A DNA stretch of 64,000 nt from an uncultured Acidobacteriota bacterium (GCA_963837055.1 CAWILU010000006.1:513455-577454); one strand, 5' to 3'. Shown: positions 58 to 38,258, numbered from the stretch's first letter. Made by a program: numbers and translations. The notes: generated from the letters alone by a model not told the origin.

Positions 58-92
58 GGAGAAGATGGTAACGGGGGGCCGTTTTAGCTCCT

Positions 93-21793: not shown

Positions 21794-21884
21794 GTCCGTT
21801 CCGCCATCGTTACGGGCCGCCAGTATCGCCTAAGAAGGCGCGGTGACTTTCTCGTAACGGCACTCGGGCACAATCAGGGGGTAC

Positions 21885-23279
21885 ATGGGTGAATACGACG
21901 CAGTTGTGGTCGGCTCGGGCCCCAACGGGCTCTCCGCCGCCGCAGAGCTGTCGCGGCGCGGGCGCAGGGTGCTGGTGATCGAACAGGCCGAGGAGATCGG
22001 TGGTGGGACCCGGACCGAGGAGCTCACGCTCCCCGGTTTCGCCCACGACGTCTGCTCGGCGATCCATCCCCTCGGAGTCGCCTCGCCCTTCTTTCGTGAC
22101 CTCCAGCTGGAGATGGAATGGGTCCATCCCACCATCCCACTGGCCCATCCCCTGGGCAGCGGCCGGGCCGGTGTCATCTCCAGAGACGTCGACGCCACCG
22201 CGGACCGATTCGGCGCCGACGCGCGTCACTACAAGCGGATCCTCGGACCACTGGTCCAGGCTGCCGACGCGGTGATGGAGGATTTCCTGGGGCCGATGAC
22301 CCTGGTGCCAGATAATCCAGGGAGCTTCGTCAAGCTCGCCACCAGGGGGGCGCTCCCGGCTTCGATCATTGCCTCCGGCTTTTCCTCGGACGAGGCCCGG
22401 GGCGTATTTGCCGGTCTCGCCGCTCACGCCATCGCCCCATTCAGCTCACCTTTGACCGGTGGGGTGGCACTCCTCTTCGGTGTGACGGCTCATGCCTATG
22501 GATGGCCGATGGCAAAGGGCGGCTCACAGCGCATCGCCGAGGCCCTGGCCAAGGTCATCGTGGATGGTGGCGGCAGCATCGAGACCGGGCGGATGATCGG
22601 TTCTCTCGACGAGCTTCCCCGCGCTCCGGCAGTGATCCTCGATGTGATGCCCCGTGCCGCGGTCCGCATTGGCGGAGCCCGCGTCAGCCCTCGGGACCGG
22701 CGCCGGCTGACGGCTTGGAAGGGTGGGCCGGCCGTGTTCAAAGTCGACTGGGCTCTCGATGGGCCGATCCCGTGGGCCGATGAATGGAGCCCGCAGGCGG
22801 GGACGGTCCACGTCGGTGGGACCTGGGAGGAGGTTGCCGCGGCCGAGGATCAGGTTCACGCCGGGCAACACCCGGAGCGACCCTTCGTTCTCGTCGCCCA
22901 GCAGTCCCGCTTCGACCCTTCCCGCGCTCCCGAGGGGAAACACACCGCCTGGGGGTATTGCCATGTGCCGTCCGGCTCTGACGTGGACATGACTTCAGCG
23001 ATCGAGGCCCAGTTGGAGCGATTCGCGCCGGGGTTCAAGGATCTCATCCTCGAAAGGCACACCATGAATGCCGGCCAGTTCGAGGCCCACAACCCCAACT
23101 ACATCAGGGGTGACATCGCAGGTGGCGGTTTCGGGGTGAAGAAGGTGTTCCAGCTGGGCTCGACCGCCCCGTATCGGCTAGGCGACGGTCTCTATCTCTG
23201 CTCCTCCGCGACCCCACCAGGGGCGGGTGTGCACGGCATGTGCGGCTACTACGCCGCCCGAGCTGCCCTCAAGGGCTGA
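21885..23279 (+). CDS. phytoene desaturase family / NAD(P)/FAD-dependent oxidoreductase (CrtI-like)
   Basis: YDAVVVGSGPNGLSAAAELSRRGRRVLVIEQ dinucleotide-binding motif; 464 aa amine-oxidase-like fold. Confidence 0.8.
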   Translation: MGEYDAVVVGSGPNGLSAAAELSRRGRRVLVIEQAEEIGGGTRTEELTLPGFAHDVCSAIHPLGVASPFFRDLQLEMEWVHPTIPLAHPLGSGRAGVISRDVDATADRFGADARHYKRILGPLVQAADAVMEDFLGPMTLVPDNPGSFVKLATRGALPASIIASGFSSDEARGVFAGLAAHAIAPFSSPLTGGVALLFGVTAHAYGWPMAKGGSQRIAEALAKVIVDGGGSIETGRMIGSLDELPRAPAVILDVMPRAAVRIGGARVSPRDRRRLTAWKGGPAVFKVDWALDGPIPWADEWSPQAGTVHVGGTWEEVAAAEDQVHAGQHPERPFVLVAQQSRFDPSRAPEGKHTAWGYCHVPSGSDVDMTSAIEAQLERFAPGFKDLILERHTMNAGQFEAHNPNYIRGDIAGGGFGVKKVFQLGSTAPYRLGDGLYLCSSATPPGAGVHGMCGYYAARAALKG

Positions 23280-24540
23280 CGGCGGCGGGAGGCGCGTCGG
23301 CCCCACGGACCCAAATGCCGATGCCTTCGGGTTGCATGGTCGAGGAGACCACGGCAACCCAGCCGGTCATCACCTCCTCGGGGTCGACCCGGTCCCGGAG
23401 TGACGTAGCAAAGCCATCCATCACCCGTTGGGCGTCGAAGCGTTCCCGGTTGAAACGGCGGTCCACCCAACCCTGGACCCGCTTTCGCAAGGGATTGAAC
23501 AGGGCGGCTACCACCAGCGTCGACCCGGCCACGGCCAGATCTGATGACTCCTCGGGCAGCAGGGAGGACATCAATGCAACGACACCGAGGAACGAGCCTG
23601 CCAACAATCCGACCACCAGGGCATAGGAGACCGTCCGGGACACGATCCGGTCGATCTCGTAGAGGCGGTAGCGGAGAACGGCCACACCGAAAGAGAGAGG
23701 GAACAGGACCATCATCACGTATGCCGGGCCCCAAGCATCGTCACCGGGATCGCCGGCACCGATACCGATCGAGATGAAGACGTAGAGAAACGTAAGCAGC
23801 ACAGCGGTGGTCAACAGCACGAAGGCAAACACCACCCAGGTGAGCTGGGCACGCTCCGCCCCGACCGCCCGACGTCTCTTGATCACCAGTGACACCGCGC
23901 CACCGAGCAGGATGGCGACGATGCCGAACAGTGCCGCGTAGCCCAGCCATTCGGGTAGGAAGCCGATTGGATTGACAGTCTGGGTCGAGGATTCCGCACC
24001 CCCCAACGTCGCGGTCAGGGCAGTGGCAGCGAGAAGAATCGGCAGGACCCAGACAGCGACACGTCCTGCCCTGGCCCATAGACCGGTGCCCGCCGGCAGA
24101 TGCCCGGAAGGGAAGGTCAGAGTCAGGGCCGCGAACAGGCAAAACACCAGAGCCCAACCCCAGCTGGATACCCAGGCGGCGAACAACGGGGACACATCCG
24201 GCAGACCGATTAGCCCGTCGGCCCACAACACCGCCAAACCGATCCAGAGCAGCAACCAGCCAGTCAGGTGACCGTTGCGACGTATGACAATCAGGCCGCC
24301 GATCGAGGCATAGATCAGAAAGCCGAAGGCGGCGAGGGTGGCGTCCGCAAACGGGCGATCGCTCAGTATCAGCTGGAGGAACGAGATCCCGAGCCCGGCC
24401 AGGACGAGGAGGCCAAGCAGGGCCCAGCGGGCCCACCGACTCAGTTGGGACTGCTCTGTGAACTCAATTGTCCCGGTCGGGCTCAATTCCGTTCGCGGAA
24501 TCGTCTCACACGGCCGCGAGCGCCGCGGACTCGTCGTCAA
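23269..24540 (-). CDS. polytopic membrane protein, paralog A of the 7-member family with a conserved C-terminal cytoplasmic module
   Basis: 423 aa; about 8 TM helices. The C-terminus RYRLYEIDRIVSRTVSY ... NPLRKRVQGWVDRRFNRERFDAQRVMDGF ... WVRG is shared with the array at 26811-33618. Confidence 0.7.
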   Translation of the reverse strand: MTTSPRRSRPCETIPRTELSPTGTIEFTEQSQLSRWARWALLGLLVLAGLGISFLQLILSDRPFADATLAAFGFLIYASIGGLIVIRRNGHLTGWLLLWIGLAVLWADGLIGLPDVSPLFAAWVSSWGWALVFCLFAALTLTFPSGHLPAGTGLWARAGRVAVWVLPILLAATALTATLGGAESSTQTVNPIGFLPEWLGYAALFGIVAILLGGAVSLVIKRRRAVGAERAQLTWVVFAFVLLTTAVLLTFLYVFISIGIGAGDPGDDAWGPAYVMMVLFPLSFGVAVLRYRLYEIDRIVSRTVSYALVVGLLAGSFLGVVALMSSLLPEESSDLAVAGSTLVVAALFNPLRKRVQGWVDRRFNRERFDAQRVMDGFATSLRDRVDPEEVMTGWVAVVSSTMQPEGIGIWVRGADAPPAAVSP

Positions 24541-24856
24541 AGATCTCGATGGCCTCGTCGAGACGGGTGAGCGAGAAGATCTGGCAGTAATGATCGGTCA
24601 GGCCATAGGCCATGAGTCGGTGCCCACTGCGCTGGGCGCGGATCAGCGTGGTGACCAGGAGGCCTATGCCCCCACTGTTCATGTACTCGAGACCCTCGAA
24701 ATTGAGCACGACGGCGGCCACCCCGCCCTGCGAGGCCTCGTCGTGTGCGGCTGAGATCTCCTTCTCGGAGAACCCGGTGATCTCACCGGTGATGTCGATG
24801 ACCCTGACCGTCGGAGTCGCCTCCCTCACGGTCATCGTCACATTGGCTGTTGGCAT
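24506..24856 (-). CDS. STAS domain anti-sigma-factor antagonist (SpoIIAA/RsbV-like)
   Basis: STAS fold with the conserved phospho-acceptor context (NFEGLEYMNSGGIGLL). The start is probably MPTANV at 24856. Confidence 0.7.
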   Translation of the reverse strand: MPTANVTMTVREATPTVRVIDITGEITGFSEKEISAAHDEASQGGVAAVVLNFEGLEYMNSGGIGLLVTTLIRAQRSGHRLMAYGLTDHYCQIFSLTRLDEAIEIFDDESAALAAV

Positions 24857-24869
24857 ATCCTCCCTCTCC

Positions 24870-25211
24870 TCACCCGGCCGCGACTGCGGCCGTCTCATCG
24901 TCATAGATAGTCATGAAGTCGGACAGACGGGTGATGCTGAACACCTCCCGATAGTGCTCCGTCAAACCGAATGCCCCGACCTCACGGTCCTCCGCTCTGG
25001 CCATCGCCAGCACCCCGACGATGACGGCGATACCCGTGGAGTTGATGTAGTCCACGCCCCGGAAGTCCATCAGGACTCGCCCTGGCTGCTCGGCGGCTTC
25101 CTCATAGGCCGCCTCCAGAGCCTGCTTGGCTGCCCGGTTCACGGTCCCGCTCATGACCACCAGGGACCCGTCTTCGGTCCTGGCCACCGTTGCCTCGAAC
25201 ACGCTCTCCAT
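24870..25211 (-). CDS. STAS domain anti-sigma-factor antagonist (SpoIIAA/RsbV-like)
   Basis: 113 aa; DFRGVDYINSTGIAVIVG has the conserved Ser/Thr. Its start overlaps the PP2C-HATPase stop by one base (TGATG). Confidence 0.8.
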   Translation of the reverse strand: MESVFEATVARTEDGSLVVMSGTVNRAAKQALEAAYEEAAEQPGRVLMDFRGVDYINSTGIAVIVGVLAMARAEDREVGAFGLTEHYREVFSITRLSDFMTIYDDETAAVAAG

Positions 25212-26800
25212 CAGGAAACTCCTTCCCGGTTCATCACGAGCTCAATCGTGTGGGTTGCACCGTCACTGGTCGATCGCACCTCGTCGACCATCTGTTCGAT
25301 CAGGAACAGGCCCCATCCACGAGGGGTCTGCTCCCCGGCGAGCTTGGCCTCCAGGTCCGGCAACGCCGCCTCCGGGATCACCCGATGACCGCCCTGATCG
25401 CTGACCAGAACACTCACGCTGTCCTCATTGGCGCATACCTGGACGTCGACGTCGAGATCGGCGCGATTGTCGTTGCCATGCTCGATGGCGTTCATCACGG
25501 TCTCGCCCACCGCTGTCTTGAGCCGCTCGAGTCGCGCCGGCTCGAGACCCATGTCCTCGATCGCAGCTGTCACCTTGGCGATGGCGACGCGCTCGTTGCC
25601 TTCCTCGCTGGGGACCGCGAACTTGGCCAACACCTGGCGCCGCTCTTCGAATGTCTCCGCCGAGGCCTGGGCGGAAGCGGTCCGCTTCACTACGACGAGG
25701 GTTATGTCGTCTTCCTGCTCCGCATCCTCGCCGGTGAATGCCTCCAGATCGGACACGACGGCATTGAGGACGTCGTCGTTGATGGGTCTCCGGGCAACGC
25801 GGGCCATGAGCCGGGCGAAGCCGTACATCTCGCCTTCGGCGCTGTGGGCCTCGGTGATCCCGTCGCTGGTGAGGACCATGACCTCGCCCGGCGACATCTC
25901 GTACTTGGCCTCGTCATAGGGCATTCCCGGCATGAGGCCGAGAGGCATGCCGGTGGCCCGCAATTCGATGACTTCGTCTCCGCTGCGCACATAGGGCAAA
26001 TTGTGCCCGGCATTGGCGAAGACGATGTGTCCTGCCTCGGTGTCGATGATCGCGTAGAGACAGGTCACGAACATCGCCGGCGGGATCTCCGGAACCAGGC
26101 CATCATTGACGTCGGCCAGCACGGCGGATGGGGAGTTGTGACGCTGGGCGGCCGCTCGCAACATCGAACGGCAGGTGGCCATCACGAGTGCGGCCGGGAC
26201 TCCTTTGTCGGTCACGTCGCCGATCACGACGCCGAGCCGCCCGTCCTCGAGGGCGATGAAGTCGTAGAAGTCTCCGCCGACCGCCCGGGCGGGTCGGTAG
26301 AAGGCGTCGACATGCCAGCCCGGGATGGCAGGCAATTCCTTGGGAAGCAGGGTCTGCTGGATGAGGGCCGCGACCTGTAGCTCCTGGTGAATCCGCTCTC
26401 TCTCCTTGGCCTCTGCCTGCTGCTCACGCACCAGTTGGGCGACCTTCATCGCCGGAGCCACCTGAGAGGCGAGACTGCCGAGCAGCCGTCGATCATCGGT
26501 CGAATAGGGCTGATCGGAGAGACGTGGGCCGAGATAGAGGGCACCGAGCAGCTCACCCTGGCCGATCAAGGGCACGATGAGCTCGACTCCGACGGCCCGA
26601 AGACTGTCGAGAGTCTCCGATTCGAGCTCTAGGTCCCCAAGCACCAGTGGGCCCCCGGACGACAACAGCAGGGTCTCCAACGGGTCCCCGACCGGAATCG
26701 GGATGGCTTCGATGAGCCGGGTCTTCGACTCCGGGATCTGTGTCTCGTCCGCAATCGGTGTTTCTTCGTCGGCTCTGCGCCGTCTCATCAGCTGAACCAT
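25211..26800 (-). CDS. partner-switching regulator: degenerate GAF - PP2C (SpoIIE-type) phosphatase - HATPase_c (RsbW-like kinase) fusion protein
   Basis: PP2C motifs GGDFYDF and GDVTDKGVPAALVMA ... DGITEA; C-terminal HATPase_c ETVMNAIEHGN ... DQGGH. The start at 26800 lies 10 nt downstream of the paralog B stop. The alternative start at 26905 would overlap paralog B. Confidence 0.85.
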   Translation of the reverse strand: MVQLMRRRRADEETPIADETQIPESKTRLIEAIPIPVGDPLETLLLSSGGPLVLGDLELESETLDSLRAVGVELIVPLIGQGELLGALYLGPRLSDQPYSTDDRRLLGSLASQVAPAMKVAQLVREQQAEAKERERIHQELQVAALIQQTLLPKELPAIPGWHVDAFYRPARAVGGDFYDFIALEDGRLGVVIGDVTDKGVPAALVMATCRSMLRAAAQRHNSPSAVLADVNDGLVPEIPPAMFVTCLYAIIDTEAGHIVFANAGHNLPYVRSGDEVIELRATGMPLGLMPGMPYDEAKYEMSPGEVMVLTSDGITEAHSAEGEMYGFARLMARVARRPINDDVLNAVVSDLEAFTGEDAEQEDDITLVVVKRTASAQASAETFEERRQVLAKFAVPSEEGNERVAIAKVTAAIEDMGLEPARLERLKTAVGETVMNAIEHGNDNRADLDVDVQVCANEDSVSVLVSDQGGHRVIPEAALPDLEAKLAGEQTPRGWGLFLIEQMVDEVRSTSDGATHTIELVMNREGVS

Positions 26801-26810
26801 GGCCCCATTT

Positions 26811-27959
26811 CTATCTCTCGACCGTCCCGAAATCGTTACGAACCCATACCGAAATCGATGTCGGGTGCATCGTCTCGGACACCACTCCCACCCAGCCCTC
26901 GACAACAGTGTCCGGGTCGAGGTCCTGCCGCAGGGAACCCGAGAATTGGTCCATCACCTGCTCTGCGTCGTAGCGCGACCGGTTGAAACGTCTCTCCACC
27001 CCTGCCTGGACCCTTCTCCGCAACGGTGTGAAGAGGGCAGCGGCGGCCAGGGTAGAGCCCGCCACGGCCAACGGGGACTCGGCGTCGAGGACTGCGGTGA
27101 GGGCGGTCAATCCCAGTGCATAGACCGCACCGAGCAGGGCGATCACGATGACATACGAGACCGTGCGCGACAGGATCCGGTCGATCTCGTAGAGCCGATA
27201 ACGCAACACGGCAAAAAGGATCGAGATCGGTATCGCGGCCACCCCGAGTGAGACAATCCACCAGATGGCTTGGTTGGAATCGTCTGACGTCGCTCCCACC
27301 AGATAGGCGATGGCAAGAAGACTGGTGGCGGCGAGCAGCCACTTGATCTGCTGACGCTCGACCGACTCCGCCCTCCGATAGCGGGCCACCACGGACAACG
27401 TCGCCGGGATGACGGAGACGAATCCGAAGATGAAGCCGGCGTCGACGAGTGGGTACCACCGCGTCGGGCTGAGCAGCTCTGAGTCCACGAGTATCTCCAG
27501 AGGCTGCCCCCAGAGAAGACCCGCCCCGATCACGGTCGACACGGCACCGATCAATGGTCCGAGACCGATGACACGCCACCAGCCAACCGGCTTTCCGGTC
27601 GGGAAACACAGAATCACGAGCGAGACCCCAATGAGAAATAGGGCACCGGTCCAAGCCCCGAGCCAACCAAAGAAATATGCCAAGGGCAGGGAGTTCCCCG
27701 ATTCGAGGGAGAGTGTCGCGTATCCCCTCCCGAACAGATAGAGCACCCAGGCCGAACCGGCAGCCAGAGAGAGGGCGCCGATCGCGTTCGACGGCACCTT
27801 GATGGTCAGGATCGCCCCGACGACCACAGAGCACACCGAGGCGAAGAGGATCCCGACCATCGAGTCGATATCCATCGGGAAAGTCAGCCAGGCGATTGCC
27901 GCGCCGATCATGAGGAGGACCCAAAGCGCGATGGCGGCCCGAAGAGGTTTGGAAGTCAT
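26811..27959 (-). CDS. polytopic membrane protein, paralog B (conserved C-terminal module family)
   Basis: The real start MTSKPLRAAIALW is at 27959. The 708-aa track ORF is an artefactual extension through paralog C in another frame. C-terminus RYRLYEIDRILSRTVSY ... RRFNRSRYDAEQVMDQF ... VWVR. Confidence 0.75.
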   Translation of the reverse strand: MTSKPLRAAIALWVLLMIGAAIAWLTFPMDIDSMVGILFASVCSVVVGAILTIKVPSNAIGALSLAAGSAWVLYLFGRGYATLSLESGNSLPLAYFFGWLGAWTGALFLIGVSLVILCFPTGKPVGWWRVIGLGPLIGAVSTVIGAGLLWGQPLEILVDSELLSPTRWYPLVDAGFIFGFVSVIPATLSVVARYRRAESVERQQIKWLLAATSLLAIAYLVGATSDDSNQAIWWIVSLGVAAIPISILFAVLRYRLYEIDRILSRTVSYVIVIALLGAVYALGLTALTAVLDAESPLAVAGSTLAAAALFTPLRRRVQAGVERRFNRSRYDAEQVMDQFSGSLRQDLDPDTVVEGWVGVVSETMHPTSISVWVRNDFGTVER

Positions 27960-28996
27960 CCGTCTCGCACCCATACGCCGGCGGCAGCCGGCTCCATGGT
28001 GGCAAACACGACCCCGATCCAGCCGTCGATGACCCCATCCGGGTCGACCTGGTTCTGCAGGGAACCGGAGAAGATGTCCATCACCTTCTGGGCGTCGTAG
28101 CGGGCCCGGTTGAACCTGCGGTCGACCCAGCTCTGAACCCGTTTGCGGACCGGGTTGAACAGCGCGGCCACCGCCAGAGTCGAGGCGGCGACGACGAGGT
28201 CGCTGGACGTGTCGAGCAGCGTGCTGGTGGCGGTGACCAAACCGAAGAACACTGCGGCCAACAGTCCGACGACCAACAAGTAACTGACCGTCCTGGACAC
28301 GATTCGATCGATCTCGTAGAGGCGGTAGCGGGTGATTGCAATCGCGACCGAGATGGGGACCCCGATGGTGATGATCATGCTTATCGCCGTGATGAGGGTC
28401 TGGGCCTCGGCCGAGGCGCCGAGAACGACACTCACGAGGACCAGCGAGACAACACCCACGAGCAGGACCAGGATCGGTCCTGCGACCTGACGGCGGATCA
28501 ATGGGGATCCCTTGATCAGCCGGTAGAGAAGCGGCAGTAAGCCGAGGATGACGACGACCGCGATGAAGCTGCCCGCCACCATGCTCAGGATGGCGATGGC
28601 GGCGGCATGCACCCAAGGCCACCACGGTCGCCGGTAGCGCCCGTCGGGAAAAAGTGTCAGTGACGAAAAGAGTGTCAACAGACCGGCATCGAAGACGATC
28701 TGTCCCGGCGTGACCAGGGCCGGGGTATTGAGAGTCTCCGCCATCTCCTGGAGGGCAACCCCTGCGCCGACGAGAAGCGGTCCGACGATGAACAGCCATC
28801 CAACTGCATTCGCCGGGATCCGCCGGGCCAGCACAACCCCAACGATCGGAAAGGCGAAGAAGGAGAGAGCCCACAATTTGTCCAGTAGGCCGATCACCTC
28901 CTCGGATCCGGGATCGAACCAGAGCGCGGCAGCCCACACCATCACGAGAAGTCCGAAGAGCGCCCAGGGCAGAATGCCGACCAATCGACGTCTCAC
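27956..28996 (-). CDS. polytopic membrane protein, paralog C (conserved C-terminal module family)
   Basis: 346 aa. The start ATG at 28994-28996 overlaps the paralog D stop (ATGA). The conserved C-terminal module is present. Confidence 0.8.
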   Translation of the reverse strand: MRRRLVGILPWALFGLLVMVWAAALWFDPGSEEVIGLLDKLWALSFFAFPIVGVVLARRIPANAVGWLFIVGPLLVGAGVALQEMAETLNTPALVTPGQIVFDAGLLTLFSSLTLFPDGRYRRPWWPWVHAAAIAILSMVAGSFIAVVVILGLLPLLYRLIKGSPLIRRQVAGPILVLLVGVVSLVLVSVVLGASAEAQTLITAISMIITIGVPISVAIAITRYRLYEIDRIVSRTVSYLLVVGLLAAVFFGLVTATSTLLDTSSDLVVAASTLAVAALFNPVRKRVQSWVDRRFNRARYDAQKVMDIFSGSLQNQVDPDGVIDGWIGVVFATMEPAAAGVWVRDG

Positions 28997-30096
28997 GCCG
29001 GCCCCCTCACCCAGACCGCGGCCGTGGCCGGCTGCATCTTCTCGGTCACCACACCGATCCAGCCTTCGACCACCTCCTCGCTGTCGACCCGGTCACGCAA
29101 CGATCCGGCAAAGCGGTCCATGACCCGCTGGTGGTCGTAGCGCGACCGGTTGAATCTATGGTCGACCGATGCCTGGACCCGCCTCCGCACCGGGTTGAAC
29201 AGGGCAGCCGCCGCCAGGGTCGATCCGGCTACGGCGAGCGGCGAGTTGTCGGGGAGGAACAAGGTCATCGCCGTCAGACCGATGAAATAGGCAGCGCCGA
29301 GCAGGACAACCACGATCACGTAGGCCACGGTTCGGGAGAGAATTCGATCGATCTCGTAGAGCCGATATCGGGTGACCGCGATCCCGATCGTTACCGGGAT
29401 GAGGATGAATCCGGCGGGCAGGAACACATTCGCCACGAGCGAGTACTGAAACCCACCGAACTCGGCGATGACGCCGATCAGGAAGACGATGAAGGCGAGG
29501 ACCAGCCACTTCATCTGCAGCCTCTCCACGCCCCTGGACCGAATCCAACGGACGACTAGTGAGATGATCGCGGCCACGATCCCGACGAGGATCAGGACCA
29601 ACCCGAGGATGTTGGCGCAAGAGCCGATCGAAACACATGCATCGACGTCAGCGGAGCCCGCCCCCTCCAGAGCCAACATTGCCCATCCGCCGATGATCCC
29701 GATCACGCCAACCGTCGCCACGACCGAGACCCAGCGCCAGCGCGGGGTCAGGGCCCGGCCGGTGGGGAACCAAAGGGGCACGAAGACGCCGAGACCAGGA
29801 AGCACGAGGGCGAAGAGGGCGATGCCACCGGCGATTTCGAGGAGGCTGCCAGGCTCGGACCCATCGGCGGCGTTCATGACGCCATCGCCCAAGGCGACCA
29901 GGAGCATGACCCATGACAGCCGGTTCTCGGGCACCTTCAATACCAGCAGTGCGCCCGTGGCGAGAAGGGAGAGAGTGCCGAGAGCGAACACCACGCCCTC
30001 GCCGGTCAAGCCCCCGCGAATCGCACCGGCCACCATGCCGCCGAGCACCATGACGGTGACCAAGGCGACGGTCAGGATTCGCCAGCCTCTGCTCAT
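28993..30096 (-). CDS. polytopic membrane protein, paralog D (conserved C-terminal module family)
   Basis: 367 aa; ATGA overlap with paralog E. Mid-protein FPTGR-x-RWRW loop motif and the conserved C-terminal module. Confidence 0.8.
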   Translation of the reverse strand: MSRGWRILTVALVTVMVLGGMVAGAIRGGLTGEGVVFALGTLSLLATGALLVLKVPENRLSWVMLLVALGDGVMNAADGSEPGSLLEIAGGIALFALVLPGLGVFVPLWFPTGRALTPRWRWVSVVATVGVIGIIGGWAMLALEGAGSADVDACVSIGSCANILGLVLILVGIVAAIISLVVRWIRSRGVERLQMKWLVLAFIVFLIGVIAEFGGFQYSLVANVFLPAGFILIPVTIGIAVTRYRLYEIDRILSRTVAYVIVVVLLGAAYFIGLTAMTLFLPDNSPLAVAGSTLAAAALFNPVRRRVQASVDHRFNRSRYDHQRVMDRFAGSLRDRVDSEEVVEGWIGVVTEKMQPATAAVWVRGPA

Positions 30097-31298
30097 TCAG
30101 CGCCATCCCTGACCCAGACACCCGCTGATGCCGGATGCATCGTCTTGGAAACCACTTCGATCCAGCCCGACACCACCTCCGGCCCATCCACTTGGTTGCG
30201 CAACGACCCGGAGAACTCGTCCATCACCAATTCGGCGTCATAGCGAGATCGATTGAAACGCCGATCGACCCGGCCGAGCACCAAGCGTCTGATCGGGTTG
30301 AACAGGGCGGCGGCGGCCAATGTGGAGGCGGCCACTGCAAGCTGCGACTGCTCGGGGAGGAGGGTGGTCAGCCAGGTGAGCGCACCCAGATAGCCGGCCC
30401 CCAACACGACGACCACCAAGACGTAGCCCACGGTGCGGGAGATCACTCGATTGATCTCGTAGAGACCGTGGCGGGTGATGGCGATGCCAATCGCGGCTGC
30501 AGTCCCATTCCCCCACAGGGCGAATGCGACCACCACGGGATCGAAGCCCTGGATCCCGACAACGAGCTCTTCCAGGACGCCTGTGGCAAGGAACATCACC
30601 GGGAAGGCTGCGACAGCTAGGACGAACCACCGGAACTGCAGCCGCTCAACACCCGAGGAGCGCCGGAACCGAATGACCAAATCAACCACTGCGACTAGGG
30701 CAATCACGGCCAGTGCGGTGCCCAGCCATTCTGTGGCCGGGTCGAGCAGATCTCGGGCCCCAGGTATGCCGAGCGGGTTGTCCGGAGGGGTGTCACCCAC
30801 CACGGGGCCCGGGCGAAGTGCAAAGACCAGAGCGTCCACCAAGGTGACGAGGAGGAAGGCTCGGAGGATCCACCGGCCAAACCGACTCGGATCACCTGAT
30901 GGATACAAGACGACGAGGGTCATCACCAAAGCCACCACGGGGAGGAATCCCCAGGTCGCCACCCAGGCGGCCGGACCGCCGAACGGCCAGGCACCGGACT
31001 CGGTGACCAGGGCGAACCTCGCATATTCAGATGCGAGAAGATCGATCCCGACGCCGAATGTGATGCCGCACATGAGCCAGCCGATGCGATTGGCGGGGCG
31101 ACTCGAAACCACCAGGGCGCCGACCAGACCGAATCCGACCCACGTCGAGAGCCAGATCGCTCCTTCGAGTGCGGACTCTTGAGCCTGGGTGGTCGAGATC
31201 GGCGGGTTCATCTCGGTCAAGACCGCCGCCAAGACGATCATCGCCACACCCGTCAGCCACATCACCCACGCAATCCATCGGCTAGTGCGAGACCTCAT
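30093..31298 (-). CDS. polytopic membrane protein, paralog E (conserved C-terminal module family)
   Basis: The real start MRSRTSRWIAW is at 31298 and overlaps the paralog F stop (ATGA). The track ORF is extended 5'. This is the most divergent copy (RHGLYEINRV). Confidence 0.75.
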   Translation of the reverse strand: MRSRTSRWIAWVMWLTGVAMIVLAAVLTEMNPPISTTQAQESALEGAIWLSTWVGFGLVGALVVSSRPANRIGWLMCGITFGVGIDLLASEYARFALVTESGAWPFGGPAAWVATWGFLPVVALVMTLVVLYPSGDPSRFGRWILRAFLLVTLVDALVFALRPGPVVGDTPPDNPLGIPGARDLLDPATEWLGTALAVIALVAVVDLVIRFRRSSGVERLQFRWFVLAVAAFPVMFLATGVLEELVVGIQGFDPVVVAFALWGNGTAAAIGIAITRHGLYEINRVISRTVGYVLVVVVLGAGYLGALTWLTTLLPEQSQLAVAASTLAAAALFNPIRRLVLGRVDRRFNRSRYDAELVMDEFSGSLRNQVDGPEVVSGWIEVVSKTMHPASAGVWVRDGAE

Positions 31299-32431
31299 GA
31301 CCCGTCTCTCACCCAAACCCCCGCCAACGCGGGCTCCATCGTCTCGGAGACGACTCCGACCCATCCATCCACCAGATCGCCTTCGTCGACGCGGTCCTGT
31401 AGAGACCCGGCGAACCGATCCATGACACGTTCGGCGTCGTATTTCGAACGGTTGAAACGACGGTCCACCCAACCCTGGAGCCGCTTGCGCAGCGGGTTGA
31501 AGAGTGCGGCGACAGCGAGAGTGGATCCGGCGACCGCCAGCTGGCTCTCGGCTGGCGACACCCAGGTGAGGACAGTCACGGCTCCGACGAACACGAGCCC
31601 GAGGACCCCCACCACGAGGATGTACCCGACGGTCCGGGAGATGAGCCGGTCGATTTCGAAGAGGCGGTATCTGACCACCGCAACACCAATGCAGATCGGG
31701 ATGGCGGATCCTCCTACCAGCCAGAACAGCTCGAATACCGAATCTTCAGGCAAGACCTGGCCGGCGGCGGAGATGACCACGAACAGACATGCACCCAGGA
31801 GCAGCCACCGGTACTGCTGGCGTTCGATGCCCGTACTCCTTCGGCTTCGGCGGATGAGGCTGACAATCGCCGCTGCAGAGAGGCCGACCACGAAGAAGAA
31901 CCCCGTATCGCCGATGATGAAATTCAATACCGAGCTCAGCTCTACACCGAGTGGGTTTTTCAATCCGGTGTCCGTGAGTGGGAGCGGGCTCAGCACGAAA
32001 CCGATCACCGCCAAAGATCCGATCGCGATCACCGCCCGCCCCACGAATCTCTCCAGACGACCGGGGTATTCACCGGTAGGGAAGGTCGTGAGGAGCCAGA
32101 CAACGATCAGCCAGGGGACAACGCCCAACGTCGTATAAACGAGCTCGATCCACGCGGCCGCTTCGAGCGGCACGCGGAGCACGATGGACTGGAGCCCGAA
32201 CGAAACTCCCCAGACCAACCCGATGGCGAGACAGGCCATCCCGATCTTGTTCCCCGGCCGTCGCATCAGGATGATCCAACCCACGACCGGCCACGCCGCC
32301 CAGGACGCCGGCCACAGTTGATCACTGGTGTCGGCCAGGGGCCCGAAGAACATTCCCAGAAAAATGCCGCCCACGGCCAGCAAGAGAAGAGCGGTGAGGA
32401 GGATCTTCCTCAAGGTCCCTCCCTCAGCCAC
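31295..32431 (-). CDS. polytopic membrane protein, paralog F (conserved C-terminal module family)
   Basis: 378 aa; conserved C-terminal module (RYRLFEIDRLISRTVGY ... RRFNRSKYDAERVMDRF). The 5' end overlaps the paralog G 3' end by 22 nt. Confidence 0.75.
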   Translation of the reverse strand: MAEGGTLRKILLTALLLLAVGGIFLGMFFGPLADTSDQLWPASWAAWPVVGWIILMRRPGNKIGMACLAIGLVWGVSFGLQSIVLRVPLEAAAWIELVYTTLGVVPWLIVVWLLTTFPTGEYPGRLERFVGRAVIAIGSLAVIGFVLSPLPLTDTGLKNPLGVELSSVLNFIIGDTGFFFVVGLSAAAIVSLIRRSRRSTGIERQQYRWLLLGACLFVVISAAGQVLPEDSVFELFWLVGGSAIPICIGVAVVRYRLFEIDRLISRTVGYILVVGVLGLVFVGAVTVLTWVSPAESQLAVAGSTLAVAALFNPLRKRLQGWVDRRFNRSKYDAERVMDRFAGSLQDRVDEGDLVDGWVGVVSETMEPALAGVWVRDGS

Positions 32432-33618
32432 ACCCCAGCCGCTGCCGGATGCATGGTCTCGCTCACGACCGAGACCCAGCCATCGACCACAACACCTGGG
32501 TCGACCTCGTCACGCAGGGCGCCGGTGAAACCGATCATCACCCGTTCGGCGTCGTACCGGGTCCGATTGAAACGGTGATCGACGAAGGACTGGACACGTT
32601 TTCGAACCGGGTTGAACAAGGCGGCGGCGGCCAAAGTCGACGCGGCTACGGCAAGCGAGGACTCGGTGTCGAGCACGGACGTCAAGCCGGCCAGACCAAG
32701 GGCGTAGACCGTCCCGAGCAAGGCGATGACGATCACATAGGAGACGGTGCGGGAGATGATCCGATCGATCTCATAGAGCCGATAGCGGAGGATGGCGAGG
32801 GTGGCGGCGATGGGGATACCCAGGATCGAGAGATCGATCCAGATCTCCACAACCAGCGGCGGCTCAACGATGCCAAACAGCTCGAGGATCATCTCCGAGG
32901 TGAGGGCGAGCACGAACGAGAAACAGGCGAGAAGGAACCATTTCAACTGGAGCCGCTCGATCGACTCCGCCCTTCGGAAACGCAAGAACAGCGAGACCAC
33001 CGCTGCTCCCATGAAGAAGGGGTAAAGGGCGAAGAGGGGGCCGCCCAGCCAGCCGTACTCAGGGTTGGGCATGCCAGGGATCCCGATCGGATTGTCCGCC
33101 CACGCGGCGCAACCGAGCGGACCGCCCTCATCGATACAGATCTGGTCGGTGAAGATGTAGGTGATGAAGGTAAGGGCGACCAGAGCGAAGCCGAGCCACT
33201 GCAGCCAGAGCCAGCGTCGACTGGGGACATGCCCGGTGGGGAACCAGAGAACCAGGGTTCCGATGCCGACGATCCAACCCAGCCAGAAAGCGCCGCCGAT
33301 GGCCTGAAAGACGAGCAGCCCCCGCTCGGCCAGCCCCCCGGCCAACCCGGCGGAGAGGATCGAAAGGCCGATGGCCGAGAAGACCCATCCGACCCGGTTT
33401 CCGTCTGCCTTCCACAGAATCAGCGGCCCGAGCGCCAGAAAGGCGACCATCGTCGCGATGTTGCCGAACGTCTCGGCATCCACTGCCGGAGGCCACCATC
33501 CCAGAATCCCACCCAGTATCAACGTCGTTAGCAGCAGCAAGCTGATCACTGCCACAACGAGCGCGGCTGTTTTGCTGGCGTTGGGGGTTATCGCCTCTCC
33601 ATCCCTCATCGAGACCAC
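32410..33618 (-). CDS. polytopic membrane protein, paralog G (first gene of the array; conserved C-terminal module family)
   Basis: 402 aa. GTG start at 33618, or ATG at 33609. Conserved C-terminal module and FPTGHVPSRRWLW loop. Confidence 0.75.
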   Translation of the reverse strand: MVSMRDGEAITPNASKTAALVVAVISLLLLTTLILGGILGWWPPAVDAETFGNIATMVAFLALGPLILWKADGNRVGWVFSAIGLSILSAGLAGGLAERGLLVFQAIGGAFWLGWIVGIGTLVLWFPTGHVPSRRWLWLQWLGFALVALTFITYIFTDQICIDEGGPLGCAAWADNPIGIPGMPNPEYGWLGGPLFALYPFFMGAAVVSLFLRFRRAESIERLQLKWFLLACFSFVLALTSEMILELFGIVEPPLVVEIWIDLSILGIPIAATLAILRYRLYEIDRIISRTVSYVIVIALLGTVYALGLAGLTSVLDTESSLAVAASTLAAAALFNPVRKRVQSFVDHRFNRTRYDAERVMIGFTGALRDEVDPGVVVDGWVSVVSETMHPAAAGVWLREGP

Positions 33619-33633
33619 AGATTGGTAGTGAAC

Positions 33634-33715
33634 CGTTACGTAAGTGAAACGGACCTTTCACACGGAACATTCGGCTCGCGTTCCGGCTTCATCCGGTTTC
33701 ACATAGCCGTAACGC
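33634..33715. promoter_or_regulatory. repeat-rich divergent promoter region between the membrane-protein array and the AfsR-like regulator
   Basis: Four GTGAAAC-type half sites (33627 GTGAACC, 33644 GTGAAAC, 33655 TTTCACA, 33697 GTTTCAC). These include the palindrome GTGAAA-CGGACC-TTTCAC (33644-33661) and a flanking inverted pair CGTTACG (33634-33640) / CGTAACG (33709-33715). Confidence 0.4.
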
Positions 33716-33733
33716 TGGGACTAGCTTCGTCGC

Positions 33734-36475
33734 TTGCTCGACATCAAACTTCTGGGCCAACCCGACGTTTCGATCTCCGGACGTCCCGTGATCGTCGACA
33801 CCCGCAAGGCGATCGCTCTTCTCGCCTATCTCGTGGTAGAGAAGTCGGCGAGCAGGGACACATTGTCCGGCTTGTTCTGGGCCGATTCCTCGCAGGAAAG
33901 GGCCAGGGCGACCCTGCGCCGGACACTGTCCGCGCTGAAGGGCGCAACCGGAACCGATCTCATCGACGCAGACCGCAACCTCGTCTCGCTCGTAGGTGAG
34001 GTCAGCTCGGACCTTGACATCCTCGAGTGGGAGTTGGCGGCAACCGGGGACCATGGTCACGACCCACGCGATGTCTGCGACCGTTGCATCCCCCACCTTC
34101 GCCGGGCCACCGAGCTCTACCGGGGCGAGTTCCTCGAAGGTTTCTCCGTCAAGGCATCCCCCGAATTCGACGACTGGGTGCGAAACGTGGCCGAGTCGAC
34201 CAGAGTTCGAATCGGGGACGCCTTCAATCGACTCGGTACCGCCCTCGCCGCGAACGGTGAATACCCGCCCGCCATCGTCGCCGTCCTGCAGTGGATCGAG
34301 CTCGATCCACTCCATGAGCCGGCGCATCGATTCCTGATGCTGCTCCACGCGTGGGCCGGGGACCGCCCTGGCGCGATCGAGGCGTACCGCAGCTGTGTGA
34401 CGATCTTGGACCAGGAGCTCGGGGTGGCCCCGTTGGACGAAACCACCGAGCTCTACGAGGCGATCCTCGACGAGGACCTCCCGCCCGCCCCGGGCGCTCG
34501 CCGACGGGTGAAGGCCGAGGCCAGGCCGAGCCGACAGCCGCCGCCGGATCTGATCGATCGCGATGTCGAGCTCAATGCGCTTCAAGACGCGCTCCGTGAG
34601 AGTGCCACCGGCAAGGGCGTGCTGGTTGCAGTCACCGGTGCACCGTGGATGGGGAAGACACGGCTCCTCGAGGAGCTGGCCAACGAGGCGGAGGGAGAGC
34701 GTGATGTCCTGATTGGGCGGGCCTTTCGCATGGAGCAGACCCTGCCCTACGGCGTCGCCACCCAGGTGCTCGGCAACGCGCAGAACCGGATCGAATCTCG
34801 GCGGGCTGAGATCCCGCCCTGGGCCATGGCGGAGCTCGGAAGACTGCTGCCGGGCATGTCTCCTCCGTCCACCGATTCGGTCCCCGACCGCTTCGGCGAG
34901 CTGAGACTGCTCGAAGGGATCAACACCGTATTCACCGTGCTGGCGACAGAGCGCCCATTGCTTGTGATCCTCGACGACGCGCAATGGATGGACGCGTCCT
35001 CGGCGTCCATATTCTCCTACCTCGCCCGCCGCATCTCGCACATCCCGGTGCTAATGGTGTTGGCCGCCCGAGCCGACGACGACCTCCTCCCCGCGGTTGC
35101 CGAGGCGATGGGTGCAGCTGATATCGCGGTACCCATCTCCCCGCTGACTGCCGACGAACTGCTCCCTTTGGTTGGGGGTGAGACGGCGACAGCCGTGTCC
35201 CTCATCGAGCGAACCGGAGGGGTTCCACTGTTGGTCAACGAAGCGCTCACCGCAGGGTCTGACGCTGCGCCGGCCACGCGTGGAGTGGCCCGCTACATGG
35301 AGGCCCGACTCCTGGAGATCGACGATCTCGGCCACCAGATCCTCAGCGCCGCCGCCGCGCTCCATGGCGTCTGTGATGCGACCCTCCTCAGAGAGACGAG
35401 TGGACGCAGCGAGGAAGAAGTGGTGCATGCGGTCGAGCGGCTGGTGGCCGCCGGACTCCTCCGCGAGATACCCGAATCCGACGGGCTCACTTTCACTCTC
35501 GATGCCATGGAGCGAGTCACCTACGACAGCATCTCGATGGTGCGACGTCGGCTGCTCCATCGTCGGACAGCGCGGGCCCTGGCCGAGCGGGGTCACGCCC
35601 GGACCGACGCACGGTTGGCCGGGGCCATTGCCGGCCAGTTTCAGGCGGCCGGCGACCCTGAGGCGGCAGAGTGGTTCCATCTCGCCGGTGGCCTGGCCCG
35701 TGCGGCGTTCGCCAACGACTCTGCCCGGCAGTTCTACCGGGCCGCGCTGGCGATGGGTCACCCCGAGGTGGCCCCGATCCATCTCGCCCTGGGAGAGCTG
35801 GCCATGGCCTCCGGCGAGTACGAACAGGCTCGCCAGGAACTGACCCTGGCCGCCGGTCATGCCGACTCGGGGCTGATCGGACTGATCGAGCACAGGATGG
35901 GAGAAGTCGAGCGTCTTCTTGGCCATTTCAACGCCGCCGAGGAGCATTTCGCCCAATCGATCGAGACCCACCCCGCCCCGGCGGCCCTGCTCGCGGACTG
36001 GGCCCTCTTGGCCCATCGAACCGGCGATTCGGCCAACGCCACCGACCTGGCGGAAAAGGCATGGGCGGCCGCCGATCTGGAGGGCGACCCGGAATTGCTT
36101 TCTCGGGTCAGCAACATCCTCGCCGTCGTGACGGTCGACAGCGAGGCCGCCCTCGCCCACGCCGAGGACGCCATTCGTCTCGCCGGTGAAGACGATCTGC
36201 TGCGAATGGCCGCCCTGAACAACAAAGCCATCCTCCTCTCCGAGAACGGCGACCGGGAACGCTCGATCGATCTGGTTCGAGAGGCGATCGACATCGCTGC
36301 CCGCACCGGGCACCACCATCAGGAGGCGGCGTTGTGGAACCATCTCGCCGACCTCCACCATCGCCAGGGGCGCGGTGACGAAGCGAAGGATTCATTGACC
36401 AAGGCGGTCGCTCTCTTCGCCGACATCGACACCGGCGAGCCCGAGCCCGAGTTGTGGCTCCTCTCCCGTTGGTGA
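33734..36475 (+). CDS. AfsR/SARP-family transcriptional regulator (SARP wHTH + BTAD + P-loop NTPase (NB-ARC-like) + C-terminal TPR repeats)
   Basis: TTG start. N-terminus LLGQPDVSISGRPVIVDTRKAIALLAYLVV (SARP DNA-binding domain); BTAD ELYRGEFLEGF ... LDPLHEPAHRFLMLLHAWAGDRPGAIEAYR; Walker A GAPWMGKTRLLEEL; TPR-like C-terminus. Confidence 0.85.
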   Translation: MLDIKLLGQPDVSISGRPVIVDTRKAIALLAYLVVEKSASRDTLSGLFWADSSQERARATLRRTLSALKGATGTDLIDADRNLVSLVGEVSSDLDILEWELAATGDHGHDPRDVCDRCIPHLRRATELYRGEFLEGFSVKASPEFDDWVRNVAESTRVRIGDAFNRLGTALAANGEYPPAIVAVLQWIELDPLHEPAHRFLMLLHAWAGDRPGAIEAYRSCVTILDQELGVAPLDETTELYEAILDEDLPPAPGARRRVKAEARPSRQPPPDLIDRDVELNALQDALRESATGKGVLVAVTGAPWMGKTRLLEELANEAEGERDVLIGRAFRMEQTLPYGVATQVLGNAQNRIESRRAEIPPWAMAELGRLLPGMSPPSTDSVPDRFGELRLLEGINTVFTVLATERPLLVILDDAQWMDASSASIFSYLARRISHIPVLMVLAARADDDLLPAVAEAMGAADIAVPISPLTADELLPLVGGETATAVSLIERTGGVPLLVNEALTAGSDAAPATRGVARYMEARLLEIDDLGHQILSAAAALHGVCDATLLRETSGRSEEEVVHAVERLVAAGLLREIPESDGLTFTLDAMERVTYDSISMVRRRLLHRRTARALAERGHARTDARLAGAIAGQFQAAGDPEAAEWFHLAGGLARAAFANDSARQFYRAALAMGHPEVAPIHLALGELAMASGEYEQARQELTLAAGHADSGLIGLIEHRMGEVERLLGHFNAAEEHFAQSIETHPAPAALLADWALLAHRTGDSANATDLAEKAWAAADLEGDPELLSRVSNILAVVTVDSEAALAHAEDAIRLAGEDDLLRMAALNNKAILLSENGDRERSIDLVREAIDIAARTGHHHQEAALWNHLADLHHRQGRGDEAKDSLTKAVALFADIDTGEPEPELWLLSRW

Positions 36476-36908: not shown

Positions 36909-37142
36909 GGGCCCACACACCCTTGATGGGGGTGGGGGTAATCCCCTATTGGATTGTCCACAGGAATCTGGATGATTGGGGAGCGGGGAGACTTCAGGGC
37001 ATCACTCCGTCCCTGGAAGCGACAATGGGGACCATCGGGGGACCGCGGTAGCGGTCCCCCTTTGACTGCGAGAAAAGCCATCCAAACCTCCACACCAACC
37101 GTCAAGAGCCGCAAAATCCCCGGCCCGCTAGCTTCCGAGTCG

Positions 37143-38258
37143 ATGAGCAGCTTCACCAAACGGGGCAGCGCAGATCTGGAATCCACCCTGCGCCGGATGG
37201 TGGTCGTCTTCCGCTTCCTCGGCTTGATCTGGATGCTGATCCTGGTCGCGGTCACGATCCGTTCGGACCCACCACCGGAGATCTGGATCGTCTGGGCGTC
37301 GGTGGGCCTCGCCATCTTCTGGACCCTGCTCACCTGGCTCGTGGCCAAGACTCAGCCCAAGTTCATGGCAGGATGGGTCTGGTTCGCCCTCGACTCCATG
37401 GCCATGCTCGCCATCGGAGCCGCATCGGTTGCATCGGGGGCGACCGAGCTGTTCCACGGCGGTCTCCCTCTGTCTCTGGTGTTCACCGGTGCCTTGCTGG
37501 GTGGTCTCCCCGGGTCCCTGATCGCAGCGGTCCTCCTCGGCGTCGAGCAGTTCTTGGTCCATGTGATCGCCGACCTGGGGGCGGTCCGTGCCGCCGGGAG
37601 TGTGATCTTCTTTGTGGTCGGAGCAATCGTCGGCTGGACCTTCGACAAGCTGCGCGACTACGACCTCGCACGTCAAGAGGCACAGGACGAGCTCGCCGCC
37701 GAGCAGGCGGCCGTGGTGCTACACGAGGAGCGCGCAATCCTGGCCGATCGTCTCCACGACTCGGTTCTGCAGACCCTCCATGCCATCCGCATGGGCGCCG
37801 ATGATCCCGGCCAGTCGAGGTATCTGGCCCGGCGCCAGGAGAGGGAGCTGAGACGGAACATCGAGGAGTGGCGGTCGGAATACCGGGACAGCTTTCGGGC
37901 CAATCTGCTCGCGGTCAGGGACGAGGTGGAGGACACCCATCGAGTCGAGATCGAAGCCGTCATCCGGGACGACGCCCAGCTCAACCCCAATCTCGCCGCC
38001 GCCATCGAGGCCGCCCGCGAGGCGATGGCCAACGCCGCCAAGCACTCCGGCTCTCGCAACATCTCCCTCTACTCCGAGTTCGCCAACGGTGAGGCCCACA
38101 TTCATGTTCGGGACGGTGGCACCGGATTCGCCAGCGACGCCCTCCGCAACCGGGTGCATGAGCGACTCGCCAAACGGGTGGAGAACGTGGGAGGCCTGGT
38201 GGAGATAGACACCGCCCCAGAGTCCGGGACAGAGATCAAGATCACAGTGGGGAAATGA
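37143..38258 (+). CDS. sensor histidine kinase (HisKA_3 / NarL-partner type) with an N-terminal 4-TM membrane domain
   Basis: H-box EERAILADRLHDSVLQTL, then HATPase_c (AKHSG ... VRDGGTGF ... GTEIKI). Starts at the ATG at 37143 (MSSFTKRG); the track ORF is extended 5'. The stop overlaps the RR start (ATGA). Confidence 0.8.
   Translation: MSSFTKRGSADLESTLRRMVVVFRFLGLIWMLILVAVTIRSDPPPEIWIVWASVGLAIFWTLLTWLVAKTQPKFMAGWVWFALDSMAMLAIGAASVASGATELFHGGLPLSLVFTGALLGGLPGSLIAAVLLGVEQFLVHVIADLGAVRAAGSVIFFVVGAIVGWTFDKLRDYDLARQEAQDELAAEQAAVVLHEERAILADRLHDSVLQTLHAIRMGADDPGQSRYLARRQERELRRNIEEWRSEYRDSFRANLLAVRDEVEDTHRVEIEAVIRDDAQLNPNLAAAIEAAREAMANAAKHSGSRNISLYSEFANGEAHIHVRDGGTGFASDALRNRVHERLAKRVENVGGLVEIDTAPESGTEIKITVGK

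Follow-up and report, generated by a model that had tools for sequence, protein, structure and literature searches.

We analysed a 64,000-nucleotide stretch of DNA from a record titled uncultured Acidobacteriota bacterium (GCA_963837055.1 CAWILU010000006.1:513455-577454; hereafter the window, with a G+C content of about 65%), and in particular a gene in it for a 913-residue regulator, transcribed divergently from an array of genes for paralogous membrane proteins. Our reading, to which we assign a probability of about two in three (0.68), is that this open reading frame (ORF) encodes a cluster-situated activator of the SARP family, which binds paired heptamers of the CGTWNCG or CGGRACG type at five promoters of the window. 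Most likely, the regulator switches on itself and the neighbouring 13-kb signalling gene cluster. In the nucleotide-activated state, two protomers would stand side by side on two heptamers 11 bp apart, each matching the consensus CGTWNCG or CGGRACG. With the -35 box missing, the bound dimer would take over its role and bring in RNA polymerase, a mechanism demonstrated for AfsR. The five promoters would be those of the first array gene, paralog G (P_G), of the regulator gene itself (P_SARP), of the internal GAF-PP2C-RsbW-like/STAS genes, and of the divergent pair encoding a DUF1990-like protein and an FAD oxidoreductase. The box at P_SARP would imply positive autoregulation.

The regulator gene was called and translated from a TTG codon at 33734 and is divergent from paralog G, as had been stated in a first-pass annotation of this DNA. 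Homologue starts agree with this call, most of them beginning with MLDI or MLEI at the position of the TTG. The database entry of a 95%-identical orthologue (P0001, 895 aa) begins at a GTG corresponding to codon 19. TTG is nevertheless the better start, because the stretch ahead of the GTG (LDIKLLGQPDVSISGRPV, with L6, L7 and G8 invariant) is conserved and the N-termini of the homologues align. On the other strand, paralog G most likely starts at ATG 33609 and not at GTG 33618, judging by the conservation of 'tccctCAT' at the former. The shared intergenic region, previously delimited as 33619-33733 (115 bp), would thus span 33610-33733. At least 1951 database proteins match the regulator, and the best 120 are all about 900 aa long; the closest relatives of the ORF are from metagenome-assembled Acidimicrobiia. 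Annotation pipelines already name the family 'SARP family transcriptional activator'.

The N-terminal part of the protein consists of an OmpR-type winged helix directly followed by a BTAD domain, the arrangement that defines SARP regulators. A profile of residues 1-262 built from 19 homologues and compared with the Protein Data Bank (PDB) matched AfsR (8hvr_I, query residues 4-248, E=9.5e-10) and EmbR (E=1.9e-8), and the family profile aligns with both proteins from residue 2-5 on. An AlphaFold2 (AF2) model of the N-terminal part (pLDDT 91.5) contains a beta-sheet, three helices and a hairpin. When this model was compared with known structures by Foldseek, the six top PDB matches were the SARP domain of AfsR in initiation complexes (8k60, 8hvr) and EmbR, with TM scores of 0.71-0.77 over about 258 columns spanning both the winged helix and the BTAD. 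On the strength of these profile and model matches we consider the SARP domain as established. The remainder of the protein has the parts of a STAND NTPase: a Walker A motif (GAPWMGKT; Walker A string GAPWMGKTRLLEEL; G302, W305, M306, G307, K308 and T309 invariant), a Walker B motif (LVILDD, with D414 and D415 invariant), an arm/winged-helix part and a C-terminal TPR sensor. The full-length AF2 model (pLDDT 86.3) gave 6mfv as top Foldseek match (E=1.8e-13, 654 columns) and also matched Apaf-1 and MalT (8bob), which suggests a nucleotide-driven switch auto-inhibited by its sensor. The first-pass annotation had named a SARP-family NTPase-TPR regulator, and Pfam, profile and fold matches bear this out. 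Among the individual parts, BTAD, Walker A and TPR were recovered by Pfam and translation, and the winged helix by the family profile and the AF2 model, not by Pfam.

The heptamers emerged from a comparison set of 80 loci, collected through the SARP gene in a scan of one genome per species, in which the SARP proteins are 34-95% identical to that of the window. The loci were mostly from Acidimicrobiia, with some from Thermoleophilia and Microbacterium and two from Chloroflexota. For each gene the 200 bp upstream were taken; 7-mers were counted in 69 non-redundant upstream regions, and composite-box patterns in 2.84 Mb. CGTTACG was found in 61 of the 69 regions (1.0 expected), CGTTCCG in 50 (1.3 expected) and CGTAACG in 44 (1.0 expected). 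On these counts, the core element is the CGTTACG/CGTAACG combination, which had earlier been listed as an 'outer inverted pair'. Searching the literature for SARP in combination with these heptamers returned nothing relevant.

The first-pass annotation had stressed four GTGAAAC-type half-sites and the palindrome GTGAAA-N6-TTTCAC as plausible binding sites. That these form the operator of the AfsR-like protein or of a dimeric second regulator now seems barely credible. All the words listed earlier are indeed present (the CGTAACG copy lies at 33708, one position from the 33709 given), and the 115-bp region is somewhat richer in repeats than dinucleotide shuffles (P~0.02 for 6-mers, ~0.07 for 7-mers). 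However, GTGAAA-type words were found in just 12 of the 69 upstream regions. GTGAAAC is not enriched across the window (5 matches versus 4.2 expected) and was rejected as a window-wide motif. In L001, a locus whose SARP protein is 95% identical, the palindrome is broken, since the arm at 33656-61 is gone and the sequence reads GGACCTACTAC. As to the single copies, the one at 33627 falls in the spacer between heptamer and -10-like element, the one at 33696 lies at the weakly conserved distal position of P_SARP, and the one at 33644 occupies the position of the 11-bp partner heptamer of CGTTACG. This partner reads CGCAACG, CGATACG or CGGTACG in other lineages and has drifted to TGAAACG here. GTGAAAC is therefore best described, from the alignments, as a lineage-specific degenerate copy of the partner heptamer; such a repeat is easily mistaken for the true motif when a single sequence is read. 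Within the window GTGAAAC does not recur, whereas CGTWACG boxes are present at three further promoters. The shared region does have binding sites in a SARP-type arrangement, through which it plausibly governs array and regulator gene alike, but GTGAAAC is not the site.

In the literature, SARP regulators are described as binding direct repeats with a spacing of 11 or 22 bp, and AfsR binds as a side-by-side dimer to two 11-bp repeats that overlap the -35 region, 8 bp from the -10 (PMC10936776, PMC11301090). The array promoters (class A) follow the layout CGTWNCG-N4-CGTAACG-N6-9-(TA)CCAATCT, and the consensus of P_G over 66 non-redundant loci is cGt..Cg-.Tt.-CGTAACG; at its -10-like element CCAATCT is kept in the close clade. 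The pattern CGTWNCG-N4-CGTAACG has 19 matches in the 2.84 Mb, of which 17 are at paralog gene starts. The gene for the GAF-PP2C-HATPase_c_2 protein is preceded by CGTAACG-aTTT-CGGGACG-N9-TAGAAa-N6-9-ATG (n=18 non-redundant), with the ATG 21-24 nt after the heptamer. In the window this box lies within the 3' end of paralog B, 22 nt ahead of ATG 26800 (MVQLMRRRR). All 80 matches to CGTAACG-N4-CGGRACG were on the operon strand (80/80). The box of the DUF1990-like gene is kept in about 25 loci (as CGTTCCG-N4-CGTTACG), 23 matches being assigned to this gene, and the FAD oxidoreductase promoter reads GgTcACC-N4-CGTAACG-N9/10-CACAAT (n=16 non-redundant loci). Nearly all composite boxes (80, 19 and 44 matches in the 2.84 Mb) precede genes of the conserved cluster and are oriented with transcription.

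The promoter of the SARP gene has a different layout, CGTTCCG-N21-23-CGTAACG-N5-7-(c)TAnnTT. In the alignment of 48 non-redundant promoters, information content was seen only at TTCCG, CGTAACG and cTAnnTT. The third heptamer, CGTTCCG, keeps a fixed distance of 28-30 bp to the right-hand CGTAACG, and lies 25 to 145 bp from the left heptamer. The distal position of the P_SARP box (TTTCACA), which had been counted as the fourth GTGAAAC-type half-site, shows little conservation and shares bases with a -35-like TTCACA. Start codons fall into two classes, 25-30 or 34-51 nt from the beginning of the heptamer. An inverted repeat, CGGAAC-N11-GTTCCG (33663-33685), was also noticed here; within the close clade (69-95% identity) it persists as GGAAC-N9-12-GTTCC. 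The conserved CGTTCCG heptamer makes up its right arm, and its left GGAAC lies at 33664-33668.

In all heptamer-anchored alignments, information was confined to the heptamers and to a hexamer 6-10 nt downstream. Read with transcription, the best-conserved copy is invariably CGTAACG, and about 21 nt separate the distal heptamer from the -10 hexamer. Heptamer pairs next to a -10-like hexamer and lacking a -35 box correspond to the published SARP promoter architecture. The transcripts of the PP2C gene and of the short-class SARP genes are probably leaderless, because the start codon is 6-9 nt past the -10 hexamer; at P_SARP in the window, the placement of the -10 would give a leaderless mRNA or one with a very short leader.

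Table 1. Coordinates of the regulator, its predicted promoters and the surrounding genes. Positions are those of the window unless residues are indicated.
Feature	Position	Strand	Description
SARP-STAND-TPR regulator gene	33734..36475	+	913 aa, TTG start; ORF call and translation
Winged helix (winged helix-turn-helix)	residues ~1-102		Family profile and AF2 model
H107-x-H109...C115-x-x-C118 loop			Family-specific; invariant columns
BTAD	residues 113-245		Pfam PF03704, E=2.5e-18
Disordered linker	residues 255-271		Full-length AF2 model
NOD/AAA_16	residues 275-442		Pfam AAA_16, E=8e-20
Walker A	residues 302-309		GAPWMGKT
Arm/winged-helix part	residues ~450-640		
TPR region	residues ~640-897		Pfam TPR matches at 657-706 and 825-895
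P_G box	33634..33651	-	CGTTTCA-ctta-CGTAACG; proximal CGTAACG 33634-33640, distal 33645-33651; 11-bp register
P_G -10-like element	33619..33627	-	TACCAATCT; 6 nt downstream of proximal heptamer; putative -10
Third heptamer CGTTCCG	33679..33685	+	50/69 upstream regions; CGTCACG in some lineages
P_SARP box	33697..33714	+	Proximal CGTAACG 33708-33714; distal TTTCACA 33697-33703
P_SARP -10-like hexamer TAGCTT	33722..33727	+	7 nt past heptamer, 6 nt before TTG
GAF-PP2C-HATPase_c_2 promoter	26808..26840	-	CGTAACG-attt-CGGGACG (26823-26840), N9, TAGAAA (26808-26813), N7, ATG 26800
DUF1990-like gene box	21797..21814	-	CGTAACG-atgg-CGGAACG
DUF1990-like gene	21074-21793	-	
FAD oxidoreductase promoter	21842..21874	+	GGTGACT-ttct-CGTAACG (21842-21859), N9, CACAAT (21869-21874), N10, ATG
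FAD-dependent oxidoreductase gene	21885-23279	+	
CGTTACG	33634-40		Left member of the 'outer inverted pair'
CGTAACG	33708-14		Right member of the 'outer inverted pair'
AGTGAACCG	33627-35		First GTGAAAC copy of the first-pass annotation; between proximal heptamer and -10-like element
AGTGAAACG	33643-51		Covers GTGAAAC copy at 33644
GTGAAA-N6-TTTCAC palindrome	33644-61		
GTTTCAC	33696-702		
Presumed target operon	23269..33609	-	Paralogs G to B, GAF-PP2C-HATPase_c_2, two STAS, paralog A
GAF-PP2C(SpoIIE)-HATPase_c_2 gene	25211-26800	-	Pfam
STAS gene 1	24870-25211	-	113 aa; Pfam E=4e-10
STAS gene 2	24506-24904	-	132 aa; Pfam E=7e-12
Paralog A	23269 to ~24440	-	
Paired kinase gene	36954-38258	+	HisKA_3, MacS-like
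NarL/LuxR-type response regulator gene	38255-38911	+	Two genes downstream of the SARP gene

Other explanations of the promoter sequences were also considered. A scan for sigma-70 consensus promoters in the two divergent regions (G/SARP and DUF1990/FAD oxidoreductase) was empty, and ordinary sigma-70 promoters were rejected on this basis. A role as RNA element was discarded for the intergenic region (fold z-score -0.24, no Rfam match there); over the whole window, Rfam at gathering threshold returned only an unrelated tRNA at 52436-52509. A lone CGTAACG at 41319-25, 12 nt before the ATG of an aminotransferase gene, has neither partner heptamer nor -10 and was judged to be a chance occurrence. 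It is very unlikely that the conserved words are promoter elements of an alternative sigma factor controlled by the PP2C/RsbW-like/STAS proteins, as in a SigB/SigF-type regulon. A sigma factor is the classical target of partner-switching modules, which are also autoregulated; this precedent speaks for such a regulon, as do the presence of an RsbW-like HATPase_c_2, a PP2C and two STAS proteins among the products of box-preceded genes and the resemblance of the GGAAC and CGT words to promoters of the extracytoplasmic function (ECF) type. However, the scan of ORFs between 19.5 and 41.5 kb brought up no sigma factor gene, and the spacings of the heptamers to the -10 (6-10 nt for the proximal, about 21 nt for the distal one) do not fit a -35/-10 pair of the sigma-70 family. 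If GGAAC is taken as -35, no CGT-type -10 follows 16-17 nt downstream at any site, and the ECF-type reading (GGAAC-N16/17-CGT) was rejected by inspection of these spacings.

We infer that the SARP protein, and not another protein, is the heptamer binder. This is based on the SARP-like geometry of the boxes, on the conservation of the DNA-contacting part of the protein and on the loci L030 and L035. The recognition helix RARATLRRTLS and a DTRKA motif do not vary between the proteins of Acidimicrobiia, Thermoleophilia, Chloroflexota and Microbacterium, which are 34-38% identical overall, and CGTTACG is retained in these same lineages. In L030 and L035, where no conserved-cluster gene was detected within the 10-kb flanks, the right-hand unit (CGTTCCG-N22-CGTAACG with the -10-like hexamer) stays with the SARP gene. 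The -10 elements, the transcription start sites and the activation, rather than repression, of these promoters are likewise deduced.

The heptamers might instead be the operators of another regulator, either the NarL/LuxR-type response regulator encoded downstream or some symmetric dimer, with the SARP gene merely regulated; we regard this as rather unlikely. NarL-type regulators also use heptamers, which counts in favour of this possibility. In many loci, the genes for the kinase and the response regulator follow downstream of that for the SARP protein. Among close relatives, whose SARP proteins are 65-95% identical to that of the window, the response regulators show 93-100% identity. On the other hand, the 10-kb flanks of many box-keeping loci (L010, L019, L021, L023, L026, L027, L030, L031 and L035) yielded no kinase/response regulator pair, and neither did those of the box-keeping loci from Thermoleophilia and Microbacterium. 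CGTAACG always has its central base oriented with transcription, which argues against a symmetric site, and the invariant recognition helix of the SARP protein parallels the invariant heptamer. Finally, the 11-bp register, the adjacency to the -10 and the absence of a -35 box are those of the SARP paradigm (PMC10936776).

Several observations nevertheless weigh against binding by the SARP protein, and the first two also favour another regulator. The loci were gathered through the SARP gene, which biases co-occurrence, so that co-occurrence cannot separate this protein from a regulator encoded elsewhere. CGTWACG is palindromic except for its centre, which is unusual for SARP direct repeats and suits a symmetric dimer. 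At P_SARP, the second conserved heptamer is inverted and 28-30 bp away, which is no known SARP spacing, and there is no conservation 11 bp upstream. The spacing of heptamer and -10 varies from 6 to 10 nt instead of being fixed at 8, sequences such as CACAAT or TACCAA make weak -10 elements, and a leaderless mRNA starting with TTG would be unusual. In the protein, Pfam gave no match to Trans_reg_C at E<=0.01.

We then compared the regulator with known systems. The first-pass annotation had attributed to it the AfsR architecture. AfsR of Streptomyces coelicolor is a large SARP (SARP, NB-ARC-type NOD, TPR). The domain order is indeed common to both proteins, as is the fold of the SARP domain (TM 0.71-0.77), and the mechanism proposed here, a side-by-side dimer on two 11-bp repeats replacing the -35, is that of AfsR. 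However, the regulator is not an AfsR orthologue, because its score with the NCBIfam AfsR equivalog NF053617 was 47.6 bits (cut-off 1430, residues 24-319 only), no NB-ARC family match was found by Pfam at E<=0.01, and the alignment with AfsR in the PDB profile search was limited to residues 4-248. The residues T88 and R92, which contact bases in AfsR, correspond to R63 and A67 in the regulator, a change that fits a different DNA specificity. AfsR acts globally, whereas the presumed target of the regulator is local. EmbR of Mycobacterium tuberculosis shares the winged helix and BTAD fold (E=1.9e-8, TM 0.72-0.75), but has an FHA domain, is controlled by the kinase PknH and lacks both the NTPase and the TPR part. 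PH0952 of Pyrococcus horikoshii (6mfv) and MalT are STAND NTPases with TPR or superhelical sensors that match residues ~270-900; the effector domain here is, in contrast, a SARP DNA-binding domain.

Residues 392-645 match the ATPase region of a TOMM kinase/cyclase fusion protein (E=7.8e-17), and the ATPase part is AAA_16/cyclase-LAL-like. Pfam detected no GerE/LuxR domain in the regulator. As the ATPase is of this kind and there is no LuxR helix-turn-helix, the closest described class is SARP-LAL (PimR, SanG), an assignment made by class description. The archetype PimR combines a SARP domain with an ATP/GTP-binding domain of the cyclase/LAL type, without LuxR helix-turn-helix (PMC10972967, PMC5930380). 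The N-terminal SARP domain and cyclase/LAL-type ATPase of the Streptomyces members (PimR, SanG, PolR, FilR) are thus found in the regulator too, and SARP-LAL genes are often divergent from their target, as is the regulator gene (PMC5930380, PMC10972967). SARP-LAL operators are heptameric direct repeats with 4-nt spacers and the consensus CGGCAAG (PMC5930380), with which CGGAACG is identical at 5/7 positions; the core heptamer here is, however, CGTWACG. Other differences concern the host, an uncultured Acidimicrobiia bacterium instead of Streptomyces, and the box-bearing genes, which are signalling genes and two enzymes instead of an antibiotic cluster or a PAS-LuxR regulator. In addition, the regulator has a clear C-terminal TPR sensor and the HxH...CxxC loop.

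This loop connects the winged helix to the first helix of the BTAD. H107, H109, C115 and C118 (HGHDPRDVCDRC; 34052-34087) are invariant in 33 homologues of 52-95% identity, and the motif is missing in AfsR and in the Microbacterium homologues. The loop may be a metal or redox site. A role of the protein in anti-phage defence as an Avs-like STAND was rejected: PADLOC matched neither the regulator nor paralog G nor the PP2C protein to a defence system.

The SARP family has been called exclusive to actinobacteria, especially streptomycetes (review, PMC10972967). Nearly all studied members are Streptomyces activators of antibiotic clusters, whereas the subfamily described here is tied to a signalling cluster and ranges over uncultured soil Acidimicrobiia, Thermoleophilia, Microbacterium and some Chloroflexota. 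The box-bearing genes included no core genes of biosynthesis, so that the usual activation of a secondary-metabolite cluster does not apply; this appears to be a habit of the studied SARPs rather than a strict definition of the family. What is new is the host range, the predicted heptamer, the regulon of signalling genes and the invariant HxH...CxxC loop. The mechanism is the textbook SARP one, and the gain is in scope, not in principle. The predicted operator (CGTAACG-type heptamers in 11-bp register) and the five-promoter regulon can be tested in cultured Microbacterium.

The gene neighbourhood varies among related genomes. Between the SARP and PP2C genes there are 0 to 9 paralogs, and in loci with none the PP2C box itself faces the SARP gene. 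Most Acidimicrobiia loci show synteny of the SARP gene with the minus-strand operon and with the two divergent genes, those of the DUF1990-like protein and the FAD oxidoreductase; in Microbacterium the PP2C and DUF1990-like genes are syntenic with it as well. In Thermoleophilia (locus L070, 5850-9865) a MacB-type ABC transporter (ABC_tran, then MacB_PCD/FtsX) is encoded divergently from the SARP gene; CGTAACG-N4-CGGAACG stands in front of the transporter, and seven-transmembrane (7TM) paralogs come after it.

The array of the window (23269-33609, minus strand) encodes seven paralogous membrane proteins, one of which matches HisKA_7TM. They share a conserved C-terminal tail of about 130 aa (...RYRLYEIDRI...VDRRFNR.RYDAE.VM...GVWVRDG) that resembles a linker and the first part of the GAF domain of a sensor kinase, and the GAF domain of the PP2C protein is without its first ~42 model positions. 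When the two were concatenated, on the idea of a split GAF domain completed by the paralog tail, the Pfam match extended from 44-132 to 34-132 and its score rose from 34.0 to 36.1 bits. Together, the PP2C/HATPase_c_2 gene and the two STAS genes make up a partner-switching set that has no sigma factor gene in its vicinity. Two ORFs were rejected as shadows: a 258-aa plus-strand ORF (24612-25388) opposite the minus-strand STAS genes, and the 400-aa 'paralog B' ORF (26836-28038). The true frame of paralog B is the long ORF 26811-28937, since the other paralogs match the corresponding region of L001 in a frame that differs from that of the 400-aa ORF.

It is conceivable, although distinctly unlikely, that the regulator is also the output of the 7TM/PP2C/STAS partner-switching chain that it activates, which would make the whole a closed, self-amplifying module. 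Many alternative 7TM sensors would feed the GAF-PP2C/RsbW-like kinase and the two STAS proteins, and the end target of the cascade would be a SARP-STAND protein replacing the -35-reading part of sigma, instead of an alternative sigma factor; the HxH...CxxC loop could add a metal or redox signal as second input. Such a closed module is supported by the absence of a sigma factor gene in the scanned part of the window, and by the conservation of the module in Acidimicrobiia and Microbacterium, with a variant form in Thermoleophilia.

Two further observations concern the window and the comparison set. The AT skew is 0.15-0.27 over 26000-34000, the paralog array, about 0 in most of the remaining window and 0.11-0.17 at 10-14 kb; the strongly positive values over the array probably reflect the codon and amino-acid bias of the minus-strand membrane proteins. 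Several metagenome-assembled genomes of the set (L001-L003, L007, L008, L020, L022 and others) have the record title 'uncultured Acidobacteriota bacterium'; in two other cases the title names Gammaproteobacteria and Boseongicola, respectively. On loci of the Acidimicrobiia type, these titles are probably taxonomic mislabels.

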